Assembly: GCA_035457825.1 (NCBI GenBank)
Contig: DATIAY010000122.1
Span: forward strand, 9,147-73,146
Direction: 5' to 3'
Length of the DNA stretch: 64,000 bases
Source: Candidatus Methylomirabilota bacterium
Lineage (GTDB): Bacteria; Methylomirabilota; Methylomirabilia; Rokubacteriales; CSP1-6
The notes under the pieces were generated by a model, which made no database searches, was not told where the DNA came from, and saw only the letters and a list, made by a program, of their open reading frames with translations. Shown one piece after another: positions 11,545-48,230 of the stretch; within the stretch, counting starts at the first letter, position 1, and each line of letters starts with the position of its first letter. The position numbers and the translations under genes are program-made.

Positions 11545-11546
11545 TC

Positions 11547-12053
11547 ATGACCCGCCTGGCGCCGGCCCTGGCGCCCCTCGCCGGCCTCGTGCTCGCGCTC
11601 GGGCTGCTGGCCGCCACGCGCGGGCTCGACGATCTCGCGCGCGAGGGCCAGCTCGGCCCCGGCTTCTGGCCGCGGCTGGTGCTGGTGGGACTCGCGACCG
11701 TGTGCGCGCTGCGCGTCGTCGTGGCGTGGCGTGGCGCGTGGGCCCACCGGGTTGCCGACCCCGATGCGGCGCCGCTGGCCCGAGGGCGACTGGCGATCGC
11801 CGTGGGCCTGATCCTGCTCTATGTGATCGCGGTTCCGGTCCTGGGCTTCCCTCTCGCGACTGCCGGCTTCATCGCCGCGTTCATGATCGTGGCCGGCGCC
11901 CGGCAGGCGAGGGGCGTGGCCGCGGCGGCGGTGGGCGGCACCATCGGCTTGCTCTACCTGTTCGTCAGGGTCGTGTACCTGCCGCTGCCCAAGGGCGCCG
12001 GCCCGCTCGAGGCGGTGACGCTGTCACTCTATCGCCTGCTCGGGATCTTTTGA
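11547..12053 (+). CDS. tctB: Tripartite tricarboxylate transporter small membrane subunit TctB
   Basis: 168 aa with four hydrophobic helices (GPGFWPRLV..), positioned between tctC and tctA. Confidence 0.75.
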   Translation: MTRLAPALAPLAGLVLALGLLAATRGLDDLAREGQLGPGFWPRLVLVGLATVCALRVVVAWRGAWAHRVADPDAAPLARGRLAIAVGLILLYVIAVPVLGFPLATAGFIAAFMIVAGARQARGVAAAAVGGTIGLLYLFVRVVYLPLPKGAGPLEAVTLSLYRLLGIF

Positions 12054-12054
12054 G

Positions 12055-13599
12055 GTGGCCGAGAGCCTAGCCTATCTCGGCGTCGGCTTCCAGAACGCCT
12101 TCGCGCCCGTGAACTTCCTCATGGTGGTGCTGGGCCTGGCCATCGGGATCCTCGCCGGCGTGCTGCCAGGCATCACCATGCTGAACTCCATCGTGCTGGT
12201 GCTGCCTTTCACCTATCTCATGGGCATCGTCCCGGCGCTGCTGCTGATGATCGGCATCTACTGCGGCGGGGTGTTCGGGGGCTCCATCACCGCGATCCTC
12301 TTCAACATCCCGGGCGACCCCATGAACGTGCCCACGGCGTGGGAGGGCCACCCGCTCAATCGCCAGGGCCGGGCCCGCTACGCGCTCGGCCTGGCCATCA
12401 TGGCCTCGGCCATCGGGGGGCTCGCCAGCGCGCTCTGCCTGGCGTTCTTCGCTCCGCCCTTCGCCCGGTTCGCGCTCAGCTTCTCGACAGTGGAGTTCTT
12501 CTCCGTGGTCGTGTTCGGGTTGGCCAGTGTCTCGGTGCTCGGGCACGCCTCGGCCACCGGAGCGCTCATCTCGCTGCTGGCCGGGATGTTCCTGGGCACG
12601 GTGGGGACCGAGGCCCAGTACGGCGTCGAGCGCTTCACCTTCGGCGTGCCATTCTTGAGGACGGGCGTGGACTTCGTCACGGTCCTCATCGGGCTCTTCG
12701 CCATCGGCGAGATCCTCGACCAGCTCGCCGGGCCCTCGACCCAGACGGCAGCGGTCACGAAGACCCGGTCGGTGCCTCGGCTGCCGCTGCTCGACCTGTG
12801 GCCGCTCCGGGGGTCGCTGATCCGAGGGACAGCCGTGGGGATCGCGGTGGGAGGACTGGCTGGCGCCGGGGCGACGGTGTCGTCTTTCGTCGCCTACGGC
12901 CTGGAGAAGCAGGTCTCACGCGACCCCGAACGCTTCGGGAAGGGCCACGCCGGCGGGCTGGTGGCCGCCGAGAGCGCCAACAACGGCTCCACGGGCGGGG
13001 CCATGATCCACCTGCTGACGCTCGGCATCCCCGGCAGCGCGGCCACCGCCGTGATGATGGGCGTGTTCCTCATCCACGGTATCCAGCCGGGCCCCTTGCT
13101 CTTCACGCGGCAGCCGGAGCAGGTCTACACGCTGTTCGCCGGCATGATCCTGGCCAACGTGCTCATGATCGGGCTGGGGTTTCTCGCCGCGGTGGTCTTC
13201 GCCGCGCTGATGCGGGTGCCGGCCTCCATCCTCAACACCCTCATCGTAGTCTTCTGCTTCATCGGCGCCTTCGCGCTGCGCAACGACATGGCCGACGTCT
13301 GGCTCACGATGCTCTTCGGCGTGCTGGGCTTCGTCATGCGCCGCTGGGATCTGCCGGTGCCCCCGATGGTCATGGGCATCATCCTGGGCCCGATGGCCGA
13401 GCAGTACTTCCTTACCTCGATGGTGTCCCACGGCAACGATCTGTCGGTGTTCGTCACGCGCCCGGTGAGCGCGGTAGCCCTGGGGTTGGCGGCGGCGGCG
13501 GTCGCGTGGGCGGTGTGGCGGAGCCAACGACAGCCGGTTGGCGAAACTGCCGAAGTGCCGAATCCGACGAAGGGGTCGCCAACCCCAGGTGCGCGTTAA
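12055..13599 (+). CDS. tctA: Tripartite tricarboxylate transporter large permease TctA
   Basis: 514-aa polytopic protein with GVLPGITMLNSIV.. and GIPGSAATAVMMG, typical TctA motifs. Confidence 0.85.
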   Translation: MAESLAYLGVGFQNAFAPVNFLMVVLGLAIGILAGVLPGITMLNSIVLVLPFTYLMGIVPALLLMIGIYCGGVFGGSITAILFNIPGDPMNVPTAWEGHPLNRQGRARYALGLAIMASAIGGLASALCLAFFAPPFARFALSFSTVEFFSVVVFGLASVSVLGHASATGALISLLAGMFLGTVGTEAQYGVERFTFGVPFLRTGVDFVTVLIGLFAIGEILDQLAGPSTQTAAVTKTRSVPRLPLLDLWPLRGSLIRGTAVGIAVGGLAGAGATVSSFVAYGLEKQVSRDPERFGKGHAGGLVAAESANNGSTGGAMIHLLTLGIPGSAATAVMMGVFLIHGIQPGPLLFTRQPEQVYTLFAGMILANVLMIGLGFLAAVVFAALMRVPASILNTLIVVFCFIGAFALRNDMADVWLTMLFGVLGFVMRRWDLPVPPMVMGIILGPMAEQYFLTSMVSHGNDLSVFVTRPVSAVALGLAAAAVAWAVWRSQRQPVGETAEVPNPTKGSPTPGAR

Positions 13600-13626
13600 C
13601 CGCGCGACACTGTTGACGGCGGTCCT

Positions 13627-13641
13627 GGGCATGCATGTTGC
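13627..13641 (+). promoter_or_regulatory. Candidate sigma-54 (-24/-12) promoter
   Basis: GGGCAT-gcatg-TTGC, with GG (13628-29) and GC (13640-41) separated by 10 nt as in TGGCAC-N5-TTGC. Lies 70 nt upstream of the small ORF at 13712. Confidence 0.4.
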
Positions 13642-13711
13642 GTAGAGAGTCGCGCGAGATCACGACAGGCCGCGCCGTTGACAGCGGGCGCGGTGGAAAG
13701 GGAGGTCCTAG

Positions 13712-13891
13712 ATGCGCGCGACTCACACCAACATCAGCCGGACGTGGACTGACGTCGTGGACCGGGTGCTCGGCTACACGGGACTGTTCATCATCGGGGC
13801 GATGGCCTGGGCCTGCGACCGTGCTGGATATGGTCCCGTCTCCGCCTCGCGGCCGTCCGTGCACGCGATACCGCAGCGGGTCGCGCGATAA
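13712..13891 (+). CDS. Small (59 aa) hypothetical membrane protein, below the ORF-track cutoff
   Basis: ATG preceded by GGGAGG at a 6-nt spacing. GC3-rich codons and one hydrophobic helix (VLGYTGLFIIGAMAWAC). Confidence 0.4.
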   Translation: MRATHTNISRTWTDVVDRVLGYTGLFIIGAMAWACDRAGYGPVSASRPSVHAIPQRVAR

Positions 13892-13910
13892 CCGGCGTCC
13901 GGCCGGCGGG

Positions 13911-16900
13911 TCAGGCGCTCCCTCGTGCGGTGTCGGGGCCGGCGAGGGCGCGCACCTGCCGGACCACCGGCGACCCTTCCAGGCTCGCGCGGAGCGCGGG
14001 ATCGCTCAGGCCGGCCAGGACCCTGTCGATCACGCTCCGCGCGGCGATGGCGGCAGAGCGGGCCGCATCGGGCCGCCCGCGCTCGAGCTCCAGCCGGGCC
14101 AGGGCCGCGTGGGTCCTCCAGAGCTGCGGCGGGTTGCCGATCTGCTCGGCGATGGCGAGGGCCTGGCGCAGCGCCTGCTCGGCATCGTCCCACCGCCTGC
14201 GGCTCCGCGCGATCTCGCCGCTCAGGCGCCAGCCCTTGACGAGATTCTTGCGGGCGCCGGTGCGGGCCGCCCGCTCGAGGCAATGCTCGGCCTGCTGGCG
14301 GGCTCGATCCAGATCGCCCCGGGCGAGCCACAGCTCGCCCTGGCTCGCCGCCAGGCGACTCAGGTAGCGGAAGCGCATCCACTCGCTGGTGGCCGGGTCG
14401 TTCGCGTAGCGCTCGATTCCCTCGAAGAGCTCGGCGGCCAGCGCGAGATCGCCCTTGGCCAGGAACACGTCTCCCAGGTTGATCTCGGCGTTGGGGATGG
14501 TGCCGTCGTCCTTGCGGCGGCGTCCGACCTCGGCGCTGCGCTGGTTGAGATCCTCGGCCGTGTCGAGGTCGCCGAGCTCCAGGTGGAGCCAGCCCAGGCA
14601 GTTGAGCAGGCGATGATGGATGGCCTCGTCGCCCAGCTTCTCGGCCAGCGCCAACCCCTCCCGGTACCCGACCTGCGCGGCGTCGTAGTCGCCCTTGCCG
14701 ATCTGCGCCAGGCCCCTCACGAACAGGCCGAACAGCAGTGGATAGAGGAGCCCGTGGCCGCGGGCGATGGCGACTCCCTCGGCGTGCAGGCGGTCCGCGG
14801 TGGAGAATTCGCCCTCCCAGTTCCAGGTGAGGCCTGCCGCGGAGAGCGCCAGCGAGTGATTCACGTGATCGCCGGCGCTGCGGCCGGTCACGATGGCGCG
14901 CTCGAGCTGGGCGCGGCCTTCCTGCCACGATCCGGTGACGGCCTGGATGAAACCCATCGTGAAGTGGCTGCGCGCCAGAGCCGACTCGGCTCGCACCGGC
15001 TCGCCCACCTCGATAGCTTGCCGGGCGTGGGCGACGGCGCCCTTGAGATCATGGCCCCACATGGCGGCCCAGGCGAGCGCCGCGAGCGCCGCGCTCTCCC
15101 GGACACGATCTCCCGCCTCGCGAGCCAGCGTCCGCAGACGCTCGGCCTCGGCCCGCGACCGCTCGAAGTCGCTGACCACGAAGTGCAGGTTGGACCTGGC
15201 GTCATGGATGGCCATGACGGCCGTGAGATCGACGCCGGCCGGCTGGCGCTGGGCAGCCTCCAGCGCTTCGTCGTAGAGGGTCAGCGCCTCGCGGGTGGCG
15301 AAGCTCTCGGCCGCCTGGCCCGCCGTGGCCAGCAGATATTCGAGGGCCTTGGGCCAGTCTTCGGCCCGCGAGAAGTGGTGGGCGAGCAGGCCGTAGTGCT
15401 CGGACAGGCGATCGGCGTTCAGGTCCTCGATCGTCGCGCCGATCCGCCGATGCAGGTCGCGACGCTCGGCTGCCGGCAGCGTGTCGTAGGCAACCTGATG
15501 AGTCAGGGCATGCTTGAACGCGTACATGGGCTCGGGGAAGAGCGTCTTCTCGTACACGAGCTCACCCGCCGTCAGCTCCCCTAGCGCCCGCTCAACGTGC
15601 TCGGGCGGCCCGCCCACGAGGTCGAGCAGGCGCCGGCCGAAGTCGCGACCGATGACCGAGGCCGCCTGCAGCGTGCTGCGGGCCGCCGGGTCGAGGCGGC
15701 CGATGCGGGCCAGGATCACGTCCTGGACGGTTTCGGGCACCACGACCTGGTCGAGCGCGCGGGCCAGCGTCACCCGGCCGCGCTCGCGGCGGAGGGAGCC
15801 GCCTTCGAGCAACGACCGCACCAGCTCCTCGACGAAGAACGGATTGCCCTCGGCCCGGCCGGCGATGAGCGACTCGAGTTCGGGCGGCAGCTCCTCGGCG
15901 CCGAGCACGTCGCGAGCGATCCGCGCGCTGTCGGCCGTGGAGAGCGCGGTGAGGGCCAGGCGCGTGGTGACCGTCCGATCGCCGAGCGGCAGCGTGTACC
16001 CAGGACGGCAGGTGAGGATCAGGAGCAGGCGCTTGCCGGCGGTCCGGTCGGCCAGCGCGGCGATCCACCGGGCCGTGGCCGGGTCCATCCAGTGGGCGTC
16101 CTCCAGGACGAGCACCTGGGGACGGCGCTCGGCCGCGCGCTCCAGCACGCGGTGGCAGGCGGTGACGACCTCGGCGTGACGGAGCTTGGCGTCCATGGCC
16201 GCCACACTGGGATCACCGGGATCTACCGAGAGGAGATAGCGCAGGAACGGCAGCGTGGGGCGCAGGTCCTCGCCCAGGCGCAAGATCCGGGGCTCGAGCT
16301 TCTCGATGACGACGGCCTCGGGGTCCGTCTCTTCGATCCGGTACGTCCGGCGCGTCATCTCGATCACGGGGTGGAAGGGGCGCGCACCCCCGAAAGGCAG
16401 GGCATGCCCGTCCGCCCACGTGCAGACGCCGGCCAGCCGCCGCCGGAGCTCGCTCAGCAGGCGGGACTTGCCGATGCCGGCCTCGCCGACGATCGTGATC
16501 ACCTGGCCCTGGCCGGCCCGGACCTGCTCGAATCGTTCGATGAGCAGCGCCAGCTCGCGGTCGCGCCCGACGAAGCCGGCGAGAGCGGGGTCAGCCTGGC
16601 CCGTGAGCCGGAACATGCTGTCGCTGGCCGGTAGCGGTATCAGGTCGAACGCGCGCGCCAGGAAACCCGCGGCTGCCCGGCTCACCACGATGCCACCAGC
16701 TTCGGCCCGCTCCAGCAGCGCCGCCAGCGCGGTCCAGCCCGAGGCGCGCCCGGCGGCGTCGATGGTGAGGGTGTCGACCGTCTGGACGACTGTGACCGGC
16801 TGGGTGTGGATGGCGATCTTCACGTCCGGGCGGTTCTCGTCTTCGCTCCTGGCCCGGCTGGCCAGAGCCCGGAGGGCCAGGGCGGCGTTGGCCGCGCGCC

Positions 16901-18164
16901 GAGGGGCATCCTCGGTCGGCTCCAGGCCGAAGGCGGCGACCATCTCGGTGATCGTGAGCTCCTGAGGACTCCCACCGAATGCCCGGACCTTTTCCACCAC
17001 CGCGTCGAGCGCCCGTGAGGCCTCGGACGTCGCCGCGTCGGCTCGAACCAGGACGAGGCGGACCTGCAACAGCGTGACCCGTGCCTCCCACTGCCGGGAG
17101 GTCGGGGCGGCGGCCGATGGAGCCGGCGCAAACGGGCGTGGCGTACGAGGGGGCCGGCCGCCCCGGCGGCGGGCCGGTGGTCCCTCGGCGTCCAGACCAT
17201 GACGTTCCAGACGGTAGCGCAGCGTGTTGCGAGGAAGCCCGAGCCGCTCGGCCGCCCGGGAGATGTTCCAGCCGGTGGCCGAGAGAGCGTCCAGGAGCTG
17301 GGCCCGCTCGTTCGCCTCGTCGAGCCCGCCAGCATCGGCCCGCGAGGCCGGGACCGCGGAACCGGCGGCGGGGGTCGAAGGCAGGCCCAGGTGGCCGGCC
17401 TCGAGCGTGCGCGCGTCGGCCAGGAGCGCGGCTCGCTCCATGACGTTCGCCAGCTCGCGGACATTGCCTGGCCACGCGTACTCCTGCAACGCGGTCCGCG
17501 CGCTCGGGGATAGCGTCTTCGGGGCCAGGCCGTAATCCTGGCAGGCCCGGGCCAGGAAGTGCTCGGCCAATTTCTCGACGTCGCCGCCGCGCTCGCGCAG
17601 CGGGGGCAGCTTCAGGGTGACGACGGCCAGGCGGTGGTAGAGATCCTCGCGGAAGCGGCGGGCTCGCACCGCGGCGGTCAGGTCCTCGCTGGTCGCTGCC
17701 ACCACCCAGACGTCGATCGGCTCGCTGCGCGTGCTTCCCAGCCGCCGCACGGAGCGCTCCTCGATCGCGCGCAGCAACTTGGATTGCAGGCCCACCGGCA
17801 ACAGCCCGACCTCGTCGAGGAAAAGGATGCCGCCGCTGGCCGTCTGGAAAAGCCCGGGCTTGGCCTGGCGCGCGTCGGTGAAGGCTCCCCGTTCGAAGCC
17901 GAACAGCTCGGCCTCGAGCAGGGTCTCGGGAATCGCCGCGCAGTTGACGTCGACGAACGGCCCGGCGGCACGGATACCGGTGCGGTGGATGGCCGCCGCG
18001 AGCAGGCCCTTGCCGGTGCCCGTTTCCCCGAGGATCAGGATCGGAGGTGGCCGCCGCATCGGGCCGCTGGGCGGGCGCAGCACCCGGACGACCTGATCAC
18101 GTAAGGTCGCCATGGCGGAGCTGTCACCGAGCAATTCGGCCAGCGCGGTCATGACGGGCGTCAT
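13911..18164 (-). CDS. Giant regulator: sigma-54 interaction AAA+ domain + Fis-type HTH + degenerate cyclase-homology domain + AAA_16/STAND P-loop NTPase + TPR array
   Basis: Walker A GETGTGKG, GAFTDA loop (17871-17888), Walker B ILFLDEVG and WPGNVRELANV. HTH is NISRAAERLGLPRNTLRYRLERHGL. Second P-loop is GEAGIGKS, followed by about 500 aa of TPR-like helices. ATG 18164 is preferred because the codons from 18266 to 18165 are AT3-rich and look non-coding; the track start is 18266. Confidence 0.8.
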   Translation of the reverse strand: MTPVMTALAELLGDSSAMATLRDQVVRVLRPPSGPMRRPPPILILGETGTGKGLLAAAIHRTGIRAAGPFVDVNCAAIPETLLEAELFGFERGAFTDARQAKPGLFQTASGGILFLDEVGLLPVGLQSKLLRAIEERSVRRLGSTRSEPIDVWVVAATSEDLTAAVRARRFREDLYHRLAVVTLKLPPLRERGGDVEKLAEHFLARACQDYGLAPKTLSPSARTALQEYAWPGNVRELANVMERAALLADARTLEAGHLGLPSTPAAGSAVPASRADAGGLDEANERAQLLDALSATGWNISRAAERLGLPRNTLRYRLERHGLDAEGPPARRRGGRPPRTPRPFAPAPSAAAPTSRQWEARVTLLQVRLVLVRADAATSEASRALDAVVEKVRAFGGSPQELTITEMVAAFGLEPTEDAPRRAANAALALRALASRARSEDENRPDVKIAIHTQPVTVVQTVDTLTIDAAGRASGWTALAALLERAEAGGIVVSRAAAGFLARAFDLIPLPASDSMFRLTGQADPALAGFVGRDRELALLIERFEQVRAGQGQVITIVGEAGIGKSRLLSELRRRLAGVCTWADGHALPFGGARPFHPVIEMTRRTYRIEETDPEAVVIEKLEPRILRLGEDLRPTLPFLRYLLSVDPGDPSVAAMDAKLRHAEVVTACHRVLERAAERRPQVLVLEDAHWMDPATARWIAALADRTAGKRLLLILTCRPGYTLPLGDRTVTTRLALTALSTADSARIARDVLGAEELPPELESLIAGRAEGNPFFVEELVRSLLEGGSLRRERGRVTLARALDQVVVPETVQDVILARIGRLDPAARSTLQAASVIGRDFGRRLLDLVGGPPEHVERALGELTAGELVYEKTLFPEPMYAFKHALTHQVAYDTLPAAERRDLHRRIGATIEDLNADRLSEHYGLLAHHFSRAEDWPKALEYLLATAGQAAESFATREALTLYDEALEAAQRQPAGVDLTAVMAIHDARSNLHFVVSDFERSRAEAERLRTLAREAGDRVRESAALAALAWAAMWGHDLKGAVAHARQAIEVGEPVRAESALARSHFTMGFIQAVTGSWQEGRAQLERAIVTGRSAGDHVNHSLALSAAGLTWNWEGEFSTADRLHAEGVAIARGHGLLYPLLFGLFVRGLAQIGKGDYDAAQVGYREGLALAEKLGDEAIHHRLLNCLGWLHLELGDLDTAEDLNQRSAEVGRRRKDDGTIPNAEINLGDVFLAKGDLALAAELFEGIERYANDPATSEWMRFRYLSRLAASQGELWLARGDLDRARQQAEHCLERAARTGARKNLVKGWRLSGEIARSRRRWDDAEQALRQALAIAEQIGNPPQLWRTHAALARLELERGRPDAARSAAIAARSVIDRVLAGLSDPALRASLEGSPVVRQVRALAGPDTARGSA

Positions 18165-18285
18165 CCTATCGCGAAGTCGCGGGCCACGCCGGGAAACTGA
18201 CGAAACCGCCGAATCGGCAGTTTGCTCGGGTTGCATGCCCGAGGCTGAACAGCTATAAATGCTCATCGTCTAAGGCAATCGGGTC

Positions 18286-18301
18286 TGGCACCAAAGCTGC
18301 A
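18286..18301 (+). promoter_or_regulatory. Sigma-54 (-24/-12) promoter upstream of the SBP56/mtoX operon
   Basis: TGGCAC-caaag-CTGCA against the consensus TGGCAC-N5-TTGCA. Lies 86 nt upstream of ATG 18387, which is preceded by AAAGGAGGGA. Confidence 0.6.
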
Positions 18302-18386
18302 CTACAGCACGTCATCTCGCGGCGTCGGCGAGTGGGCCGCCGCATGCGACAACCAAACGAACCGATCGAGCAAAGGAGGGACGCCA

Positions 18387-19694
18387 ATGAAACGAGTCAG
18401 GATCGCGATGTGGATCACACTGGCCGGGCTGTTCGCCGCGCTGGCCCCAACTGGGGCCCGCGCCGACGAGCCGTGCCAGTCGCCCTACGTGCAGAAGATC
18501 ACGGGCGAGGAGGAGTTCGTCTACGTCTGGACGCTCGGGGTAGAGGGCATGGGAGACGGCTCCGACAAGCTCGTCACCGTGGATGTCCGCCGCAAGTCGC
18601 CCACCTACGGAAAGGTCATCCACAGTGTCTCCGTCGGCGGGCGCCATGAGGCCCATCACGGCGGGTTCACCGACGACCGGCGCTACTTCTGGACGGGTGG
18701 GCTCGACACCAGCAAGATCTTCATCTTCGACGTCGCCACCGATCCGGCCAAGCCCCGCCTGCACAAGACCATCGACGACTTCGTCAAGGCCTCCGGCGGC
18801 GTGGTGGGACCGCACACCTTCTATGCGCTGCCCGGGCGGATGTTGATTGCCGCCCTGTCCAACGACCGCGATCACGGTGGGCGGACGGGGATGGTCGAGT
18901 ACTCGAACGACGGCAAGTACCTGACGACGCACTGGATGCCGACGGCAACCACCAACGGCGCCAAGGTCGAGAAGGTGGCCGACGGCTACGGCTACGACGT
19001 CCGCGTCCTGCCCCGCAAGAACGTGATGCTGACCTCGTCCTTCACCGGATGGTCCAACTACATGATGGACTTCGGGCAGATGCTCAAGGACCCGGAGGCC
19101 ATGAAGCGGTTCGGCCAGACGGTGGTGGTGTGGGACTTCCATGCCCGCAAGCCCAAGAAGGTGCTGCACGTGCCGGGCTCGCCGCTGGAGATCCGTTTCG
19201 CCACCCAGCCCAACCACAACTACGCCTTCGTCACCACCGCGCTGACGTCGAAGATCTGGCTGGTCTATGAAGACGACAAGGGCGAGTGGCAGGCCAAGCC
19301 CGTCGCCGACATCGGCGACCCCGCCAAGGTCCCGCTGCCCGTGGCCATCACGTTCAGCGTCGACGACAAGACGCTATGGGTCGACTCCTTCATGGACGGC
19401 ACCGTGCGCACCTACGATGTGACGGATCCCCACAAGCCGCGGGAGATCTATTCCAAGCGGATCGGCTCGCAGGTCAACATGGTGTCACAGAGCTGGGACG
19501 GCAAGCGGCTGTACTTCACCAGCTCCGTGCTGGCGCGCTGGGACAAGAAAGGCGCCGACAACGAGCAGTTCTTCAAGGCTTACACCTGGGACGGCAAGGC
19601 CCTGGAGGAGCGCTTCGCCCTCGACTTCACGAAGCTCGGGTTGGGCCGGGCCCACATCATGCGCTTCGGCAGCGCCAGCCTCTACACGAAGTGA
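18387..19694 (+). CDS. mtoX: SBP56-family protein (selenium-binding protein 56 / methanethiol oxidase MtoX-like), periplasmic
   Basis: Signal peptide. TVDVRRKSPTYGKVIH, PLEIRF and WDGKRLYFTSSVLARWDK parallel human SELENBP1 (TVDVDPKSPQYCQVIH, PLEIRF, DGKRLYITTSLYSAWDK). Confidence 0.8.
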   Translation: MKRVRIAMWITLAGLFAALAPTGARADEPCQSPYVQKITGEEEFVYVWTLGVEGMGDGSDKLVTVDVRRKSPTYGKVIHSVSVGGRHEAHHGGFTDDRRYFWTGGLDTSKIFIFDVATDPAKPRLHKTIDDFVKASGGVVGPHTFYALPGRMLIAALSNDRDHGGRTGMVEYSNDGKYLTTHWMPTATTNGAKVEKVADGYGYDVRVLPRKNVMLTSSFTGWSNYMMDFGQMLKDPEAMKRFGQTVVVWDFHARKPKKVLHVPGSPLEIRFATQPNHNYAFVTTALTSKIWLVYEDDKGEWQAKPVADIGDPAKVPLPVAITFSVDDKTLWVDSFMDGTVRTYDVTDPHKPREIYSKRIGSQVNMVSQSWDGKRLYFTSSVLARWDKKGADNEQFFKAYTWDGKALEERFALDFTKLGLGRAHIMRFGSASLYTK

Positions 19695-19704
19695 TGGGGA
19701 AAGA

Positions 19705-20403
19705 ATGATGCGGATTGCCACGCGCGCGGCCCTGGCGCTCCTCGTGGCCGGCCTGCTGGCGCCGGCTGCGTCGGCGCACGGGCCGCGCGGCTCGTCCAAC
19801 TCCACCGGCGCCGATCTGGGATATCCGCGCTTCGACTACCAGCCTCCGGCGCCCGGGACCTACGCGCTGCCGGCCGTCAAGGCGGCCGCCGACGGGCAGG
19901 TGGTGGACGCCACCAGCACCCGGCGCCGCCTGCACGACTTGATGGGCGACCGCATCGTCGTGCTGAGCTTCATCTCGACCCGCTGCAGCGACGCCCAGGG
20001 TTGTCCGCTGGCCACCGCCGTCCTGCACCAGCTCCGGGCCGCCGCGGCCAGCGACCCGGCGCTGGCGCGCCGGCTCCGCCTCGTGACGCTGAGTTTCGAT
20101 CTCGCTCACGACACGCCCACCGTCCTGGCCCGCTTCGTCCCGCCGGCTCGTAACGGGCGGGCGAGTCCCTGGACGGCCGTGGTGCCGACGTCGGAGGGGG
20201 AGCTCTCGTCGATCCTGGCCGCCTATGGCCAGCCGGTCGGGCCTCGGGTCGTGGAGGCGCCGCCCACCCATCTGCTCCGCGTCTACCTGATCGACCGCCA
20301 GCGCGAGATTCGCAACGTGTACGGCCTCGACTTCCTGGACCCCCGCCTGCTGCTCAACGACGTGCGCACGCTGATCCTCGAGGAGCAGGGCCGGCGGCCA
20401 TGA
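19705..20403 (+). CDS. SCO1/SenC-family copper chaperone-like thioredoxin-fold protein
   Basis: Signal peptide, with VVLSFISTRCSDAQGCPLATAVL (a cysteine pair in the SCO position) in a thioredoxin-fold context. Confidence 0.7.
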   Translation: MMRIATRAALALLVAGLLAPAASAHGPRGSSNSTGADLGYPRFDYQPPAPGTYALPAVKAAADGQVVDATSTRRRLHDLMGDRIVVLSFISTRCSDAQGCPLATAVLHQLRAAAASDPALARRLRLVTLSFDLAHDTPTVLARFVPPARNGRASPWTAVVPTSEGELSSILAAYGQPVGPRVVEAPPTHLLRVYLIDRQREIRNVYGLDFLDPRLLLNDVRTLILEEQGRRP

Positions 20404-21605
20404 CCACCGGGCGGCGGGTGATGACAGGGGTGCTGGGGGCGCTGGCTCTGGCCGTGGTGGCTCTGGCCACCGACGCCAGCGAGCAGGCGGGCGACAGCGG
20501 GGCTGACCGGCGGGTGGCCGCGGCCCTCGCCCGCATCGCCACGCCGCCCCTGGGACTGCCACCGGTTCCCGTGCCCGCCGACAACCCGCCGACACCGGCC
20601 AAGGTGGCGCTCGGCCGCAAGCTCTTCTTCGACCGTCGCCTGTCCCACAACGGCACGATGTCGTGCGCGATGTGCCACATCCCCGAGCAGGGCTTCACGA
20701 ACAACGAGCTGGCCCGTCCGGTCGGCATCGAGGGCCGCAGCCTGCGCCGCAACGCGCCGACCCTGCTCAACGTGGCCTACGTCGAGCGGCTCTTCCACGA
20801 CGGGCGGGAGATCGCGCTGGAGACCCAGGTCATCGGTCCCCTGGTCGAGCGCAGCGAGATGGGCAATCCCTCGATCGGCCACGTCATCGCCCGCATCCGC
20901 TCGCTGCCCGACTACGCCGGCCTCTTCGAGCGCGCGTTCGGCGCCAGCCCGAGCCCCGACCGCATCGGCCAGGCCATCGCCAGCTACGAGCGCACGCTGC
21001 TCTCGGGCCGCTCGTCCTTCGACCACTGGTACTACGGCGGTGAGCCCTCCGCGGTCGGGCCCCGGGCGGTGGAGGGGTTCCGCCTGTTCACCGGCAAGGC
21101 CGGCTGCGTGTCCTGTCACACGATCGGGGCCCGTCACGCGCTTTTCAGCGACGGCGCCTTCCACGACACGGGCATCGGCTACTACAACGCCGTCGTCCGC
21201 CCGCGCCAGCGCACGCCGGTGCCGGTGGAGCTGGCCCCCGGGGTCATCGCCCAGCTCCCGCCGGAGGCCGTGGAGAGCGTGGGCGACCCGGAGGCCGCCG
21301 ATCTCGGACGGCACGAGGTGACTCTGGTTCCCGCCGACCTGTGGAAATTTCGGACGCCGACCCTGCGCAACGTGGCCCTGACCGCGCCGTACATGCACGA
21401 CGGCTCGCTGCGCACGCTCCCGGACGTGGTGCGGTTTTACAATCGGGGCGGACAGCCTCACCCGGGCCTCGATCCCCGGCTCCGTCCGCTCGGGCTCACC
21501 GAGACCGAGATGGCCGCGCTGGTGGAGTTTCTCGAAGCCCTCACCGGGACGGATGTGGCGCGCCTCATCGAAGAGGCCTGGACACCGGGGCCGCCGGGAA
21601 ACTGA
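20400..21605 (+). CDS. Di-haem cytochrome c peroxidase / MauG family protein
   Basis: Two CxxCH motifs (CAMCHIPEQGF, CVSCHTIG) and PTLRNVALTAPYMHDGSL. 4-nt overlap with the SCO1-like gene. Confidence 0.85.
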   Translation: MTTGRRVMTGVLGALALAVVALATDASEQAGDSGADRRVAAALARIATPPLGLPPVPVPADNPPTPAKVALGRKLFFDRRLSHNGTMSCAMCHIPEQGFTNNELARPVGIEGRSLRRNAPTLLNVAYVERLFHDGREIALETQVIGPLVERSEMGNPSIGHVIARIRSLPDYAGLFERAFGASPSPDRIGQAIASYERTLLSGRSSFDHWYYGGEPSAVGPRAVEGFRLFTGKAGCVSCHTIGARHALFSDGAFHDTGIGYYNAVVRPRQRTPVPVELAPGVIAQLPPEAVESVGDPEAADLGRHEVTLVPADLWKFRTPTLRNVALTAPYMHDGSLRTLPDVVRFYNRGGQPHPGLDPRLRPLGLTETEMAALVEFLEALTGTDVARLIEEAWTPGPPGN

Positions 21606-21609
21606 ATCC

Positions 21610-22560
21610 CTACTCTTTGAGCGTCTCCATCGCCTGGCGGGCGTACGCGTTGTCCACCAGGTCCTCGTAGCGGTGGCGGCGCTTGATGAACCCGCCGGCG
21701 AGCAGGATCTCTTGCAGATACTCGAATCCCGGCCGCTTGAGGACAGGATGGGTGGCCCACGTGTCCTGAGCGAGGTAGCGCTCGACGGCCCGGCGTCGCA
21801 GGTGGGCCGGGATGTCGGCAAAGTCCGGCCCGATCAGCTCGGCGATCTCGGCGGCGCCGTGCCCGGCGATCCAGCGCTGGGCCCGGTACACGCCGCGGGT
21901 GAAGCGCAGGAGCAGCTCGGGCTGGCGGGCGAGCCGGTCGGGCGTGGCCAGGTACGACGAGAACGGTACCGGGCCCGTGGCCTCTCCCATCGAGGTCACC
22001 AGGTGGGCGGCGCCGCCGGCCACCAGCTGCTCCGTCGTCGGCTGCCCGGCCTCTAGGAATTCGCCGCGGCCACCCTGGAATGCGGCGACGGCGTCGGCGC
22101 CGTGGAGATCGCGGATGAACGTGACCCGGTGGGGGTCGACGCCGTGGCGCCGCAAGACGGTAAGCATGCACTGCCAGGGCGTAGGCGCTCCGGCGAACGA
22201 GATCACGGTGCGGCCCACGAGATCGCGCCAGGTGAAGTCCGGCCGCGGCGTGCGGCTGAGCAGGAAGAAGCCGTTGCGGCTGTTGACCTCGGCGAAGTGG
22301 GGGATCAGCCGACCGCCGCGGTCGGCCACGTCGAGGCTGCGCATGAGCCCGCCCAGGCCGAGCTCGGCCGCGCCCTCGATGACGGCGCGCAGGACATTGG
22401 TGCGGCCGTCGGCGATCACCGGCTCCACGTCCAGCCCCTCGGCGGCGAAGTGCCCGCCGCGGATGGCCACGCTGTGCGGCGCGTAGAAGAGCGACCGGAA
22501 CGGTTGGGCGACCCTCACCTGCATCGGGGCGCCAGTATAAACCACCTCAGGGCTAGTCAC
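21610..22560 (-). CDS. NMT1/THI5-like (nitrate/sulfonate/bicarbonate-type) substrate-binding protein, no signal peptide
   Basis: 316 aa. The GTG start overlaps the upstream stop (GTGA). Periplasmic-binding-protein type 2 pattern (..GLDVEPV..G..N..A...G..D.G.). Confidence 0.6.
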   Translation of the reverse strand: MTSPEVVYTGAPMQVRVAQPFRSLFYAPHSVAIRGGHFAAEGLDVEPVIADGRTNVLRAVIEGAAELGLGGLMRSLDVADRGGRLIPHFAEVNSRNGFFLLSRTPRPDFTWRDLVGRTVISFAGAPTPWQCMLTVLRRHGVDPHRVTFIRDLHGADAVAAFQGGRGEFLEAGQPTTEQLVAGGAAHLVTSMGEATGPVPFSSYLATPDRLARQPELLLRFTRGVYRAQRWIAGHGAAEIAELIGPDFADIPAHLRRRAVERYLAQDTWATHPVLKRPGFEYLQEILLAGGFIKRRHRYEDLVDNAYARQAMETLKE

Positions 22561-23552
22561 TCGATGAGGCGATCCGCGCGCAGCAGGATGCTCGGCGGGA
22601 TCACGAGACCGAGCATCTTGGCGGTCTTCATGTTGATGACCAGCTCGAAGCGCGTGACCTGCTCGACCGGGATGTCGGCGGGCCGGGCGCCCTTGATGAT
22701 CCGGTCCACCAGGCGGGCCGCATGGCGTCCCAGCGCGTGCAGGTTTGCCGCGTAGCTGACGAGGCCGCCCTGCTCGACGTGAAACGAGGCGTGGAGCATC
22801 GTCGGGACAGCCTGTCGCCGCCCAGCCTCGATGATGAAGCCGGGAATGTTCAGCGACAGAAAACGGGGCGAGAGGATGCCATCCACCTCGCTCTTGCGCA
22901 CCCTGCCGAGCGCCACCCGGGCCTCGTCTTGCGTGTGCACGGGCCGCTCGATCAAGCTCAGGCCCAGTCGCCGGGCTGCTTCCCGATACCGCTCCAGCTG
23001 GGAGACGGCGTAGGGGTCGCCGGCGTCGTAGGCAAACAGGACGCGCTTCAGCCCCGAGACAACCTCGCGGAAGATCTCCAGGCGCTTGGGCGCCAGCTCG
23101 ATGTCGAGGTCGGCCACCCCCGTCACGTTGCCGCCCGGCCGGGCAATGCTCTGGACCAGTCCGGTGCCCACCGGATCGCTCCCGCTGATGAACACGATGG
23201 GAACGCGGTCGGTCGCTCGCTGGAGCGCCTTCGCCTCGTTCGCACCCCCGCCCCCGGTGACCAGGATGTCGGCGCCCCGCTCGACGAGCTGGCGCGCCGC
23301 GCGCGGTAGCTCGTCGGCGTCACCCTCGGTGAAGCGCACGCCGATCACGAAGTGCTCGTTCTCGCGATGGCCGAGCTCGACCAGGCCGTCCCGCAGGCCC
23401 ACGATTCCCGGGGTGGGGCCCCAGGATTCCGACAGGGCTCCGATGAGGACCGGCTTCACCCGTTGCTGGGCAGGCGATTCCTGCACCAGTCCCCACGCGA
23501 TCACGATGAGAGCGACTCCGAGTGCCCGACAGGCGTGCAGGTTCCCCTTCAT
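22557..23552 (-). CDS. ABC-transporter substrate-binding protein (ABC_sub_bind/PF04392-like), 331 aa
   Basis: Signal peptide. Contains VKPVLIGALSE.., PIVFISGSDPVGTGLVQSIARPGGNVTGV and FELVINMKTAKMLGLVIPPSILLRADRLIE. ATG 23552 overlaps the upstream stop (ATGA). Confidence 0.75.
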   Translation of the reverse strand: MKGNLHACRALGVALIVIAWGLVQESPAQQRVKPVLIGALSESWGPTPGIVGLRDGLVELGHRENEHFVIGVRFTEGDADELPRAARQLVERGADILVTGGGGANEAKALQRATDRVPIVFISGSDPVGTGLVQSIARPGGNVTGVADLDIELAPKRLEIFREVVSGLKRVLFAYDAGDPYAVSQLERYREAARRLGLSLIERPVHTQDEARVALGRVRKSEVDGILSPRFLSLNIPGFIIEAGRRQAVPTMLHASFHVEQGGLVSYAANLHALGRHAARLVDRIIKGARPADIPVEQVTRFELVINMKTAKMLGLVIPPSILLRADRLIE

Positions 23553-23942
23553 TGCCGCGGCGACCCGGATTGCGGGCCCCGCGCCCGGGACGGGACGGGT
23601 TCGCCGGGTGTAGCGGCCAGCAGGGTCTCGACGATCGTCAGGGCGGTGGGGCTCGCCCATTCGCGGACGCCCACCGCCAGCGCCTCTGCTTGTCCGTCGC
23701 GCCCGATGAGGAACGTGGTGGGCAAGCCGATCACGCCGTATCGGCCCGTGACCGCGCCGTCGGCGTCGAGGACCAACGGGAAGCTCAGGCCCAGGTCACG
23801 GGCGTAACGCCGCCCACCGCCGGGCCCTCGCGCGTGTTGATGCCGACGACCGCCAGCCCACGGGTGCCGAACCGACGATGCAAGGCCTCGAGGGCTGGCA
23901 TCTCCTGGCGGCAATCGACGCACCAGGTCGCCCACGCGGCCA
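23549..23942 (-). pseudogene. TlpA/ResA-like thiol:disulfide oxidoreductase remnant: N-terminally short and frameshifted
   Basis: The frame from ATG 23942 reads MAAWATWCVDCRQEMPALEALHRRFGTRGLAVVGINTREGP.. and stops at 23785. The homologous continuation RRYARDLGLSFPLVLDADGAVTGRYGVIGLPTTFLIGRDGQ is in the other frame (track ORF 23549..24025). The shift lies in the G/C run at about 23800-23830. Confidence 0.6.
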
Positions 23943-24605: not shown

Positions 24606-26096
24606 TCACCGCGTGGACTGCGTCGGTGCTCGGCGCAGGATCGGCCAGACGAGCGCGGCGAAGGTGAGCAGGAGAAAGCCGGCGGCGATCGGCTGGCGCA
24701 GGAAGACCGTGGGGTCGCCACCGCTCAGGGTGAGGGCCAGGCGGAACTGCTCTTCCAGATCGCCCCCCAGGACGAGGCCGATGATCATGGGCACCACCGG
24801 GAAGCCATACCGGTTCAGCAGGTAGCCGACGGCGCCGAAGCCGAGCATGACGGCGCTGTCGAAGAGGGTGTTGCGGAGACCGTACGCGCCGACGACGCAG
24901 AGGACGGCAATGGCCGGCAGGAGCGCGCTCGTGGGCAGCCGGAGCACCTGGACGATGAAGCGTACCGACAGCAGCGCCACCACCAGGGTCATGACGTTGG
25001 CCAGGAGCAGCGCCCAGAAGACCCCGTAGACGAAATCCGGATGCTCCTTGAAGAGCAGCGGCCCGGGAGCCAGCCCCTGGACGATCAGGACCCCGAGCAG
25101 GATCGCGGAGATGGGGTCGCCGGGGATCCCCAGCGTGAGCATGGGGATGAGCGCGCCGCCGGTGACGCCATTGTTGGCGGCCTCGGGAGCGGCGACGCCC
25201 TCGGCGCTGCCCCGGCCGAAGGCCTGGGGCGCGCGGGACACGCGGCGAGCGAGGTCGTAGGCCAGGAACACGGCGATGGGACCGCCGGTGCCGGGGATAG
25301 CGCCGACGCCGGTGCCCACGGCGGAGCCGATCACCATGCTTCGGTTCAGCGCCCCGAGCTCACGCCACGAGGGCAGCAGGCTCGTGAGACCGACGGTGAA
25401 CCTGGGAATGACAGCACCAGCGCCCCCTCGCAGGCCCTCGATGACCTGGGGGATGGCAAAGAGCCCGATGAGCGCAGGAATGAAATGCAGGCCCGCCTGC
25501 AGCTCGACTCGCCCGAACGTGAAGCGAGGCGTGCCCACCATGGGGTCCTGGCCGACGGTGGTGAGGAGCAGGCCGAGGACCCCGGCGATCAGCCCCTTGA
25601 CGAGCGAGCTTCCGGCGAAGGCGGCGATCAGCGTGAGTCCCAGCGTCAGCAGCGCGAACTGCTCGGCCGCCCCGAACTGCAGCGCCACGCGCGCGATCAG
25701 CGGGGCCGAGAGCACGAGGCAGACCAGGCTGAAGATGCCGCCATAGACGGAGGAGATGACCGACACGCCGAGCGCCTTGCCGGCCTCGCCACGGCGGGCC
25801 ATACGGTAGCCGTCGATGGCCGTGGCCGACGCCGAAGGCGTGCCCGGGATGTTGATGAGGATCGCCGAGTAGGAGCCGCCGGTCATGCCGGCGGCGAAGA
25901 GCCCGAGCATGAGGGACATCGCGACGACCGGGGGCAGCCCGAAGGTCAACGGTAGGACCAGCACCATCCCCAGCGAGATCGTGAGGCCGGGGAGCGCGCC
26001 CACGACGAGCCCGAGCAGGACTCCGACGAAGCTCGCCAGCAGGCTCGGCCAGGAGAGCGCCTGGCCCAGGGCCTGCCAGATTGCGGCGTCCGTCAT
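24606..26096 (-). CDS. tctA: Tripartite tricarboxylate transporter large permease TctA (second copy)
   Basis: 496-aa polytopic protein with GALPGLTISLGMV.. and GIPGDPISAILLG. Confidence 0.85.
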   Translation of the reverse strand: MTDAAIWQALGQALSWPSLLASFVGVLLGLVVGALPGLTISLGMVLVLPLTFGLPPVVAMSLMLGLFAAGMTGGSYSAILINIPGTPSASATAIDGYRMARRGEAGKALGVSVISSVYGGIFSLVCLVLSAPLIARVALQFGAAEQFALLTLGLTLIAAFAGSSLVKGLIAGVLGLLLTTVGQDPMVGTPRFTFGRVELQAGLHFIPALIGLFAIPQVIEGLRGGAGAVIPRFTVGLTSLLPSWRELGALNRSMVIGSAVGTGVGAIPGTGGPIAVFLAYDLARRVSRAPQAFGRGSAEGVAAPEAANNGVTGGALIPMLTLGIPGDPISAILLGVLIVQGLAPGPLLFKEHPDFVYGVFWALLLANVMTLVVALLSVRFIVQVLRLPTSALLPAIAVLCVVGAYGLRNTLFDSAVMLGFGAVGYLLNRYGFPVVPMIIGLVLGGDLEEQFRLALTLSGGDPTVFLRQPIAAGFLLLTFAALVWPILRRAPTQSTR

Positions 26097-26109
26097 CGGC
26101 GATGGCGCG

Positions 26110-26550
26110 TCAGAGCCAGGGGCTCCGCGGCAGCGGAACCGCGAACAGCACGGTCAGCACGAGCCAGACCCCGAACGTGAGACCGACGGCGGCGCCGAGA
26201 ATGAACAGCGGCGATCGCGCCCCGCACAGCCACGTCGTGATGCCGACGAAGGGAAGGGTCGCCAGGAAGTAGCCCAGATGGGCCAGGGCCGCGACGTAGA
26301 GGCTGAGCAGCGCCAGCACTCCAGCCGCCTGGGCCCAGCCGGGCGACTGGGCGTGCGCGAAGTCGTCACCGGCGGGCTTGCTCTGGATCAAGAGGGCCAG
26401 GGCCAGCAGTGCGAGGAGCCCGCAAAGCAGGAGGGGCACGAACGCCGACCCCGGCCCCTCGGGAGCGAGCACCGGCAGCCCGCGCGCCAGCCAGGCCCAC
26501 GTCCCGGCCACGGCCAGCACGGCGAGCGCGGCACCGACGCGGGCCGACAC
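26110..26550 (-). CDS. tctB: TctB small membrane subunit (second copy)
   Basis: 146 aa with four helices, positioned between tctC and tctA. Confidence 0.7.
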   Translation of the reverse strand: MSARVGAALAVLAVAGTWAWLARGLPVLAPEGPGSAFVPLLLCGLLALLALALLIQSKPAGDDFAHAQSPGWAQAAGVLALLSLYVAALAHLGYFLATLPFVGITTWLCGARSPLFILGAAVGLTFGVWLVLTVLFAVPLPRSPWL

Positions 26551-26557
26551 GCGGGAC

Positions 26558-44461: not shown

Positions 44462-44477
44462 TGGCACGGACATTGCC
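44462..44477 (+). promoter_or_regulatory. Sigma-54 (-24/-12) promoter
   Basis: TGGCAC-ggaca-TTGCC lies immediately after the M24 stop, 84 nt upstream of ATG 44560. Confidence 0.65.
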
Positions 44478-44559
44478 CCACAGCCTTTCCAGTCGCCAGG
44501 GCGAGCCCGAGACGGCCCGCGCTGTTACAAATTGACACAGGCGATGACAGGGAGGGCAT

Positions 44560-48045: not shown

Positions 48046-48128
48046 GAACACTCCTCCTCTTCATTCGTTTTCGCTGCTCGGGCCCCGGGTAGCCGCCCCT
48101 GCGGCTGCGCGCCCGATCCAGGGCAGTG

Positions 48129-48144: not shown

Positions 48145-48230
48145 GGCCTGATGCGACCAGCGGTCGAGGCCCGGGCGCGAGGAATTTCGGTGTGTTGGCC
48201 GGCGCTATGACGGAGCCGGCCTTGCCGCTG

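Follow-up and report, generated by a model that had tools for sequence, protein, structure and literature searches.

The locus analyzed here raises the question of how transcription of a methanethiol oxidase gene (mtoX) is controlled in a Rokubacteria-type member of the Methylomirabilota. In the turnover of volatile sulfur (methanethiol, DMS, and the breakdown of DMSP), the oxidation of methanethiol acts as a control point. Soils and sediments harbor Rokubacteria/Methylomirabilota in abundance, and we know of no cultured model for methanethiol oxidation among them. Regulation of mtoX is known so far from one IclR-type regulator in a marine Roseobacter, SPOA0268 of Ruegeria, which is the sole mtoX regulator described (PMC5739008). 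In the 64-kb stretch of DNA examined (hereafter, the window), mtoX and two further genes lie divergent from a gene encoding a giant enhancer-binding protein (EBP), and a first-pass annotation had placed this gene set apparently under sigma-54 control. The coordinates reported there for the promoter, both inverted repeats, and the three open reading frames were all exact (Table 1).

Table 1. Features of the mtoX locus and of the second promoter region (window coordinates)
Feature	Position	Strand	Remarks
Second upstream activating sequence (UAS), four direct TGNCGAA units, TGGCGAA-AC-TGCCGAA-G-TGCCGAA-TC-CGACGAA	13539..13571	+	inside the tctA 3' end
Sigma-54-type −24/−12 element GGGCATGCATGTTGCG	13627..13642	+	GG 13628-29, GC 13640-41; predicted start ~13653
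Small ORF, 59 aa, one predicted membrane helix, motif DRxxGYxGLxxIG	13712..13891	+	converges on the activator gene 3' end
Giant enhancer-binding protein, 1417 aa	13911..18164	−	start may instead be 18152
UAS of the mtoX promoter, CTGACGAA-A-CCGCCGAA-TCGGCAG	18197..18220		invariant alignment columns
Inverted repeat CTCGGG-N7-CCCGAG	18225..18243		conserved only in L081, L082
A+T-rich patch GCTATAAATGC	18252..18262		between enhancer and −24; genome 70% G+C
Sigma-54-type promoter TGGCACCAAAGCTGCA	18286..18301	+	GG 18287-88, GC 18299-300
Ribosome-binding site AAGGAGGG	18373..18380	+	
mtoX, methanethiol oxidase (SBP56 family), N-terminal signal-peptide-like sequence	18387..19694	+	PF05694, NF052453
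SCO1/SenC-like thioredoxin-fold protein, C-x5-C motif TRCSDAQGCP	19705..20403	+	homologue of the post-mtoX gene in most loci
MauG-like di-haem cytochrome c peroxidase-family protein, CAMCH and CVSCH	20400..21605	+	PF03150

The predicted mtoX operon

MtoX enzymes are known for a Cu-dependent reaction in which methanethiol is oxidized, with formaldehyde, H2S, and H2O2 as products. The first gene product scores 755.6 bits with the NCBIfam equivalog NF052453 "methanethiol oxidase" (cut-off 650), matches Pfam PF05694 (178.2 bits, 3.4e-52), and is 66–94% identical to hundreds of homologues. By its equivalog match, it is classified as a methanethiol oxidase, in agreement with the first-pass annotation. 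For the second product, labeled SCO1 earlier, the score with PF02630 (20.3 bits) lies under the cut-off of 22.8, and the cysteines are arranged as C-x5-C rather than CxxxC, so that an assignment as SCO1/SenC copper chaperone is not made and the name "SCO1-like" is preferred. The C-x5-C arrangement is found in 135 of 136 mtoX-linked SCO1-like homologues; some SCO1-like homologues score above the PF02630 threshold. The third product belongs to the CCP_MauG family (PF03150, 171.9 bits, 1.8e-50) and has two CxxCH motifs, but it stays below the cut-off of the MauG equivalog (TIGR03791, 227.9 vs. 443.85 bits) and also below that of MbnH (TIGR04039, 233.5 vs. 362.85 bits). The gap between mtoX and the SCO1-like gene is 10 nt, and the SCO1-like and MauG-like genes overlap by 4 nt; the three genes would form a single operon. 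Homologues of both downstream genes follow mtoX in most of 167 loci, and the gene order is the one described by Eyice et al. (PMC5739008), as had been recognized before.

The predicted promoter and its upstream elements

The intergenic region between activator and mtoX (18165–18386) measures 222 bp if 18164 is taken as the activator start. It contains TGGCAC (18286–18291) and CTGCA (18297–18301), separated by the spacer CAAAG (18292–18296), which places GG and GC at canonical spacing, and the sequence displays the GG-N10-GC pattern of sigma-54 promoters (TGGCAC-N5-TTGCW). The mtoX ATG lies 101 nt downstream, and the transcription start predicted from the promoter is at ~18312. The element, whose GG/GC spacing the first-pass annotation had already noted, is the only exact match to TGGCACN5YTGCW on both strands of the window. 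When one mismatch was allowed, four matches were obtained vs. 3.8 expected, so that only the exact mtoX site stands out. The scoring with a sigma-54 weight matrix suggested there was carried out with a matrix derived from 53 promoters in the literature (25 of E. coli and 28 of Desulfomicrobium; S2 table, PMC12316311). The mtoX promoter reached 17.2 bits, the top score on either strand of the window, and none of 1.92 million positions of a first-order Markov null attained this value. The training promoters themselves score between 7.8 and 26.0 bits (median 19.4). An Rfam search matched no RNA element.

The UAS is composed of two direct TGNCGAA-type units and one inverted unit and covers roughly positions −116 to −92 relative to the predicted start. 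Its repeats, ~65–90 nt upstream of the promoter, are kept in all 12 activator-linked mtoX loci. Of the two inverted repeats listed in the first-pass annotation, both are present; GCCGA-A-TCGGC (18208–18218) proved to be part of this conserved UAS, whereas CTCGGG-N7-CCCGAG is retained only in the two closest relatives and was absent from L001, L084, and L085 in the intergenic comparison. A patch comparable to the A+T-rich stretch downstream of the UAS occurs in 12 of 12 intergenic regions; possible roles are a bend, an IHF-type site, or the −10 region of the promoter for the divergent activator gene.

Conservation across mtoX loci

All 12 activator-linked loci, and 2 of 149 loci lacking the activator, have the promoter together with at least two repeats (Fisher p = 2e-16, uncorrected for kinship). 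Because the loci are phylogenetically related, these counts are not independent events. The two exceptions (L002 and L009) belong to the same lineage and have the activator off-contig or elsewhere. In the 12 intergenic regions, the distance from the start codon of the activator gene to the best site is 113–134 nt; GGCA and TGC are retained around a drifting 5-nt spacer (CAAAG, CGTCG, CCGGA, TGCGG, and others). An alignment of seven sequences has most of its invariant columns, and the sole long runs of them, in the repeats and the −24/−12 element; about ten other invariant columns are scattered, mostly just 3' of the promoter. In the distant loci L003, L009, and L087, the −24 part starts with C or A, not T, and the core scores 7.5–9 bits. 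L001, L003, L014, L081, L082, and L084–L088 have the giant activator in divergent orientation to mtoX, and neither activator nor promoter was found in the Methylomirabilota mtoX locus L026. The sigma-54 control put forward at the outset gains support from this comparison: the −24/−12 element has the same position in every activator-bearing relative irrespective of its varying spacer, the UAS is conserved as well, and activator and mtoX remain paired in loci where identity has fallen to 56% for the activator and 71% for MtoX.

A gene for sigma-54 (rpoN) was found neither in the window nor in the fetched loci. "Ca. Methylomirabilis oxygeniifera" has RpoN (DAMO_1190; supplement of PMC12316311), and the window encodes a second EBP (CHASE2-AAA+-HTH_8, loop GSFTGA), accompanied by a sigma-54-like site of its own. 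Both count indirectly towards the use of sigma-54 in this genome and phylum. No paper linking mtoX and sigma-54 was found in the literature, and sigma-54/EBP regulation of volatile-sulfur oxidation, as deduced here from sequence, appears not to have been described before.

The giant activator

Most homologues of the activator begin at the methionine equivalent to 18152. The protein has no N-terminal sensor domain and starts directly with the sigma-54 AAA+ domain, followed by an AAA lid, HTH_8, an unmatched region of ~200 amino acids, an AAA_16 STAND NTPase, a MalT-type TPR, and TPR_12. Judged by its sequence, the AAA+ module is genuine: Sigma54_activat (PF00158) matches with 201.9 bits, Walker A (GETGTGKG) and Walker B (FLDEVG) are present, and the nearest solved relatives are NifA, ZraR, FlrC, NtrC1, and PspF (E 1e-55 to 1e-67). 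The Fis-type HTH_8 (PF02954, 48.8 bits) is internal, not C-terminal, and ~1050 residues comprising the STAND NTPase and the TPR follow it. In this part, AAA_16 (PF13191, 90.4 bits; Walker A GEAGIGKS, Walker B VLVLEDAHW) precedes the MalT-type TPR (PF17874, 70.6 bits), which is the arrangement of MalT-like STAND proteins (AAA_16/NACHT P-loop, then TPR). Among solved structures, only TPR proteins and none of the STAND proteins match by sequence. Full-length homologues of ~1400 amino acids are common in metagenomes. The loop reads GAFTDA instead of the canonical GAFTGA in this protein and in 102 of 118 family members, with F and T invariant. GAFTDA is among the variants listed as compatible with activation and is found in DVU2106, for which sigma-54 targets have been assigned (PMC4641369).

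A predicted second promoter and a small predicted membrane protein

The combination of repeats and promoter exists at just two sites in the window, upstream of mtoX and at 13539–13642. The 16-nt two-unit repeat pattern has three exact matches in the window, all inside the two enhancers. The second UAS is conserved in L084 and L168, and L084 carries CGGCATGGACGTTGCC at the position equivalent to the −24/−12 element; the set of enhancer and promoter as a whole is conserved in L084, L168, L171, L172, and L173. Downstream lies the 59-aa ORF, whose product is annotated with identical sequence in a Methylomirabilota MAG. Its family has 105 members, all annotated as hypothetical and matching no Pfam model, including those of PspB/PspC. 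In relatives, the mtoX operon begins with the homologue, which is located between sigma-54 promoter and mtoX (L003, L009, L014, L087, and L171).

Proposed regulation and alternative explanations

According to the scheme that we propose, sigma-54 RNA polymerase would transcribe the operon from the promoter upstream of mtoX, and the divergent EBP would activate it. The internal HTH_8 of the EBP is predicted to bind the TGNCGAA repeats ~100 nt upstream, upon which the N-terminal AAA+ domain would open the closed complex using ATP. The same protein would drive the like-designed second promoter for the small membrane protein across its own gene. By analogy with MalT, the C-terminal STAND NTPase and TPR may serve as a module for signal sensing and oligomerization, and the signal is likely methanethiol or its oxidation product. 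We regard this scheme as a whole, from the sigma-54-transcribed operon and activation via the repeats to the second promoter and STAND-TPR sensing, as probable.

A reading that accepts the sigma-54 promoter but assigns its activation to another EBP seems unlikely to us. The giant protein would then bind the repeats for autoregulation, repression, or sigma-70-type activation, of which Rhodobacter NtrC is an example. GAFTDA departs from the canonical loop, as this reading would have it, yet the invariant F and T and the presence of the same variant in an EBP to which sigma-54 targets have been assigned speak for an activator. The repeats lie 30–60 nt from the start codon of the giant gene and could act on its own promoter; however, the second promoter is preceded by the same repeats. 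While promoter and repeats are kept in L002, where no activator gene is adjacent, gene, repeats, and promoter co-occur in 12 of 12 loci. No recognizable sigma-54 promoter was found near the paralogue in L083, whereas the one in L173 again faces repeats and a GG-N10-GC element.

It is highly improbable that transcription starts from an unrecognized sigma-70- or ECF-type promoter, with GG-N10-GC conserved otherwise, for example, within a protein-binding site. In L007, where the activator is missing, an ECF sigma/anti-sigma pair immediately precedes the small ORF and mtoX, and an ECF sigma pair lies nearby in L082. Nevertheless, the conserved bases are those that sigma-54 reads, at exact spacing around a drifting spacer, and an adjacent gene always encodes a sigma-54 interaction domain. 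No sigma-70-type promoter was matched between 13400 and 22000 with an E. coli-type consensus, which may differ from that of this phylum. That the promoter is a chance match in G+C-rich DNA might be argued from the one-mismatch sites, which are about as frequent as expected from shuffled sequence, but the exact match is unique, top-scoring, and unequaled in the null positions. Its conserved position across 12 loci effectively refutes a chance origin.

Returning to the sigma-54 scheme, its components may extend beyond methanethiol oxidation. The giant-activator module would stand beside mtoX and the SCO1-like and mauG-like genes here, and beside genes for an alcohol and an aldehyde dehydrogenase in L173. 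We tentatively suggest, as a possibility that is still rather doubtful, an undescribed class of sigma-54 activators in which a C-terminal STAND/TPR region gates the AAA+ motor, and which would form a module with TGNCGAA enhancers, promoter, and small membrane protein serving varied cargoes in the Methylomirabilota. Within such a class, the small protein might act in feedback or as a membrane-tethering partner, in analogy to the Psp system. In the activator, a STAND module and a sigma-54 AAA+ motor, both of them ATPase switches, would be naturally fused into one transcription factor. The promoter/activator pair provides a handle on mtoX induction in metatranscriptomes and a candidate sensor, responsive to methanethiol or to sulfide/formaldehyde, for reporters.

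Comparison with known systems

The mtoX operon of Ruegeria pomeroyi DSS-3 (SPOA0268-0272), which is methanethiol-inducible at the level of transcription (Eyice et al., ISME J 2018; PMC5739008), shares with the present locus the order of mtoX, a SCO1/SenC-domain gene, and a mauG-like gene, as well as a dedicated regulator gene directly upstream. In Ruegeria, the IclR-type regulator is co-transcribed with mtoX and no sigma-54 was reported, whereas here a divergent EBP of 1417 amino acids and a −24/−12 promoter are found. In this respect, the locus resembles the classical divergent EBP/sigma-54 catabolic units NorR-norVW, PrpR-prpBCDE, XylR-Pu, and DmpR-Po, with repeats ~100 nt upstream of GG-N10-GC, an A+T-rich stretch in between, and binding sites overlapping the activator's own promoter region. 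The classical activators carry N-terminal sensors (GAF, V4R, and PrpR_N), unlike the giant activator, which begins with AAA+.

PspF likewise lacks an N-terminal regulatory domain; it consists of AAA+ and HTH, ends there, and is controlled in trans. The small single-pass membrane protein recalls PspB/PspC, but it is unlike the PspB/PspC models, no PspA-like gene is present, and a cis-encoded STAND/TPR region follows the HTH. With MalT, the LAL family, AfsR, and GutR, the giant activator has in common the AAA_16-type P-loop NTPase followed by a MalT-type TPR. In MalT, ligand and ATP drive oligomerization, and a LuxR-type HTH gives the output on sigma-70 polymerase, whereas the giant activator would act through a sigma-54 AAA+ motor at the opposite, N-terminal end.

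EBP genes directly upstream of mtoX were also encountered in L018 (Verrucomicrobiota; GAF-PAS-AAA+-HTH_8, 666 aa), with the sigma-54-like element TGGCACGATGCGTGTT and three palindromes TCACGAA..TTCGTGA, and in L157 (low-G+C metagenome contig; PAS-AAA+-HTH_8, 461 aa), with the element TGGCACAACATTAGCA. Both EBPs differ from the giant activator in being conventional, encoded on the same strand as mtoX, and devoid of a STAND/TPR region. The presence of sigma-54-type promoters with other activators next to mtoX in the Verrucomicrobiota and a low-G+C lineage suggests that the link between sigma-54 and mtoX is recurrent and not a one-off.

Organization of the mtoX operon

The SBP56 protein encoded at 18387-19694 scored 755.6 bits against the NCBIfam methanethiol oxidase equivalog (cut-off 650), in agreement with its designation as MtoX in the first-pass annotation; its N-terminus is signal-peptide-like. 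The second gene, taken there for SCO1, is homologous to the gene 3' of mtoX in most loci, but its product does not reach the Pfam SCO1-SenC threshold, and CxxxC is replaced in it by C-x5-C. This motif is found in 135 of 136 mtoX-linked SCO1-like homologues within the conserved context T(R)C-x5-CPLAT, and judging from these sequences the proteins may form a distinct subfamily. The MauG-type assignment of the third gene holds at the level of the CCP_MauG family (di-haem, two CxxCH motifs), but the protein stays under the MauG and MbnH equivalog cut-offs. A gap of 10 nt separates mtoX from the SCO1-like gene, which overlaps the MauG-like gene by 4 nt; the gene 3' of the latter is convergent on the operon. 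The proposed correspondence to the gene order mtoX, SCO1, MauG reported by Eyice et al. (PMC5739008) was confirmed. TctC/B/A tripartite tricarboxylate transporter sets and ABC-type substrate-binding genes flank the locus (10570-13599, 21610-23660, and 24606-27517), and the operon of a related locus, L085, is likewise flanked by TctA/TctB and an ABC_sub_bind gene.

Features of the mtoX region and further sigma-54-related elements in the window
Feature	Position	Strand	Description
Second sigma-54-type element	13627-13642	+	GGGCATGCATGTTGCG; about 60 nt 3' of the repeats at 13539-13571; predicted start near 13653
Small ORF	13712-13891	+	59 aa, one hydrophobic helix; converges on the 3' end of the activator gene
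Giant activator gene	13911-18164	-	1417 aa, divergent from mtoX
mtoX enhancer	18197-18220		TGNCGAA units CTGACGAA-A-CCGCCGAA-TCGGCAG; invariant columns in alignment
mtoX sigma-54-type promoter	18286-18301	+	TGGCAC (18286-18291), spacer CAAAG (18292-18296), CTGCA (18297-18301)
mtoX	18387-19694		SBP56 family
SCO1-like gene	19705-20403
MauG-like gene	20400-21605
Sigma-54-like site	44460-44478	+	AGTGGCACGGACATTGCCC; good site; at the stop codon of an M24 peptidase/creatinase-like gene
187-aa ORF	44560-45123		no Pfam match; begins 82 nt 3' of the AGTGGCACGGACATTGCCC site
OmpA-family gene	47473-48051	-	77 nt 3' of the CCTGGCCTCGACGTTGCTC site
Sigma-54-like site	48128-48146	-	CCTGGCCTCGACGTTGCTC; core 16.0 bits; follows the second EBP
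Second EBP	48304-51057	-	CHASE2-AAA+-HTH_8, loop GSFTGA

The predicted sigma-54-type promoter and enhancer of mtoX

The promoter was found exactly where the first-pass annotation had placed it, with GG (18287-88) and GC (18299-300) in canonical sigma-54 spacing and the ATG of mtoX (18387) 101 nt 3' of the -24/-12 element. No other exact match to TGGCACN5YTGCW exists in the 64-kb window. Tolerating one mismatch raised the count to four, versus 3.8 expected by chance, so that the exact site alone is exceptional. The promoter was also scored with a sigma-54 position weight matrix, as had been suggested. The matrix was derived from 53 published promoters (S2 table of PMC12316311). With 17.2 bits (training promoters 7.8-26.0, median 19.4), the mtoX promoter is the top-scoring site on both strands of the window, a score reached by none of 1.92 million null positions. 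Neither a sigma-70-type promoter nor an intrinsic terminator was detected in 13400-22000, using an E. coli-type sigma-70 consensus that may not fit this phylum, and Rfam gave no match in 13000-22500 (E up to 0.1). A conserved 5'-UTR stem-loop just 3' of the predicted start, which the alignment had made seem possible, was rejected, since RNAalifold returned a penalty (positive covariation term) and no more than one compensatory pair.

The comparison was based on 167 genomic and metagenomic mtoX loci (among the matches listed) and on further loci reached via activator homologues. The closest genomic relatives are MAGs of Candidatus Rokuibacteriota and Methylomirabilota; among the matches listed, no metagenome mtoX relative was closer than 78%, and these were used for the survey only. 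The giant activator is divergent from and adjoins mtoX in L001, L003, L014, L081, L082, and L084-L088, and the pairing persists down to 56% activator and 71% MtoX identity. In all 12 intergenic regions, the best sigma-54 site and the start codon of the activator are 113-134 nt apart, with GGCA and TGC constant and the spacer variable. An A+T-rich patch separates the repeats from the -24 box at every locus. An alignment of seven sequences has the majority of its invariant columns, including all long runs, in the repeats and the -24/-12 element; about ten further invariant columns are scattered, mainly just 3' of the promoter. Both small inverted repeats noted previously, GCCGA-A-TCGGC (18208-18218) and CTCGGG-N7-CCCGAG (18225-18243), are present, but only the former is part of the conserved enhancer, which is centred about 100 nt 5' of the predicted start (near 18312); the latter recurs in the two closest relatives alone. 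A promoter together with at least two repeat units occurs at 12 of 12 mtoX loci with the activator versus 2 of 149 without it (Fisher p = 2e-16, the relatedness of the loci being ignored), and the two exceptions belong to the same lineage.

The giant activator

The protein begins with a sigma-54 AAA+ domain (PF00158, 201.9 bits), followed by an AAA lid, HTH_8, approximately 200 residues without family match, an AAA_16 STAND NTPase (motifs GEAGIGKS and VLVLEDAHW), and MalT-type TPR repeats. Hence, one chain combines two ATPase modules with an HTH between them. A degenerate cyclase domain, suspected in the stretch that links the HTH to the STAND NTPase (aa ~330-530), was discarded for want of Pfam support at E up to 10. 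In sequence comparisons with solved structures, the N-terminal module matched NifA, ZraR, FlrC, NtrC1, and PspF (E 1e-55 to 1e-67), and the C-terminal part matched TPR proteins only. The sigma-54 contact loop reads GAFTDA instead of the usual GAFTGA. Among 118 full-length family members, 102 carry GAFTDA and 16 GAFTGA; GAFTDA is among the loop variants listed as activation-compatible and is present in DVU2106 of Desulfovibrio, a protein to which sigma-54 targets have been assigned (PMC4641369).

Metagenomes contain many full-length relatives of about 1400 aa. Not every member of this family shares the design, as at least one, the paralogue in L083, is encoded away from mtoX and has neither a recognisable sigma-54 site nor repeats nearby. 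A second SBP56 paralogue (L085, 9209-11252) and a copper-handling cluster encoding CusF, CopC, CopD, a PCuAC-like protein, and SCO1 (L081, 7923-12917) are situated 3' of the respective activator genes; lacking a promoter-plus-repeats site, neither stands out as part of the regulon.

A second predicted promoter with a small membrane ORF

Three stretches of the window match the two-unit repeat pattern exactly; a single one falls within the mtoX enhancer and the other two lie at 13539-13571. The window contains exactly two promoter-plus-repeats sites. The second precedes the small ORF, whose product is 100% identical to VLG10_09740, an annotated protein of a Methylomirabilota MAG; the family comprises 105 matches, all annotated as hypothetical and without Pfam assignment, and its members recur behind this enhancer-plus-promoter arrangement. 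The layout of repeats, promoter, and small ORF is kept in L084 and L168, whereas L172 has the small ORF by itself, preceded by repeats and a promoter of 16.8 bits. In other genomes, the mtoX operon opens with the small ORF; in L003, L009, L014, L087, and L171, its homologues are located 3' of the sigma-54 promoter and 5' of mtoX. In L173 (1545-9482), the gene for a 1422-aa paralogue of the giant activator diverges from repeats, a GG-N10-GC element, and the small ORF; next come a gene for a zinc alcohol dehydrogenase, a gene of unknown function, and one for an aldehyde dehydrogenase, which indicates the same regulatory module with different cargo. Taken together with the mtoX loci, these cases define a recurring unit of giant activator, TGNCGAA repeats, sigma-54 promoter, and small membrane ORF; by gene content, the enzyme genes behind it vary between loci.

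Evidence on sigma-54 in the source organism and in other lineages

A six-frame search for the RpoN box revealed no rpoN in the window or in any fetched locus. Indirect support for sigma-54 in the source organism comes from the second EBP and its site, the site at 44460, and the RpoN entry DAMO_1190 of Ca. Methylomirabilis oxygeniifera (PMC12316311 supplement).

Activators of conventional enhancer-binding protein (EBP) types are encoded directly 5' of mtoX in a Verrucomicrobiota MAG (L018, 3714-6000; GAF-PAS-AAA+-HTH_8, with sigma-54-like TGGCACGATGCGTGTT and three 16-nt TCACGAA..TTCGTGA palindromes) and a low-G+C metagenome contig (L157, 3245-5000; PAS-AAA+-HTH_8, with TGGCACAACATTAGCA). Strong sigma-54-like sites were also found in L161 and Sedimenticola L038, with no activator within the fetched stretch. 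These findings point to sigma-54 control of mtoX in multiple lineages, where it seems to have arisen, or to have been kept, with different sensors. In L007 (1-1040), genes for an ECF sigma factor and a zf-HC2-type anti-sigma factor precede the small ORF and mtoX and no EBP is found, which suggests that the operon is regulated in another way there.

Proposed regulation and comparison with known systems

In the best-supported reading of these sequences, sigma-54 holoenzyme would bind at 18286-18301, the giant activator would bind the TGNCGAA repeats via its internal HTH and open the complex through ATP hydrolysis, and the mtoX operon and the small ORF would be induced together. By analogy with MalT, the STAND/TPR region may serve as sensor and oligomerisation switch. 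The signal might be methanethiol or one of its oxidation products, as methanethiol induces transcription of the mtoX operon in Ruegeria (PMC5739008). The activator is possibly autoregulated via the repeats, 30-60 nt from its own start codon, and the small membrane protein could modulate the system.

The only mtoX regulator described so far is the IclR-type SPOA0268 (PMC5739008). In the openly accessible literature searched, neither a link of mtoX or methanethiol oxidation to sigma-54/RpoN nor a description of an EBP-STAND fusion was found. The predicted sigma-54/giant-activator unit of mtoX has good support from sequence and comparative data. In its predicted mode of working, it resembles the classical divergent EBP/sigma-54 catabolic operons; its target and its activator architecture set it apart from them.
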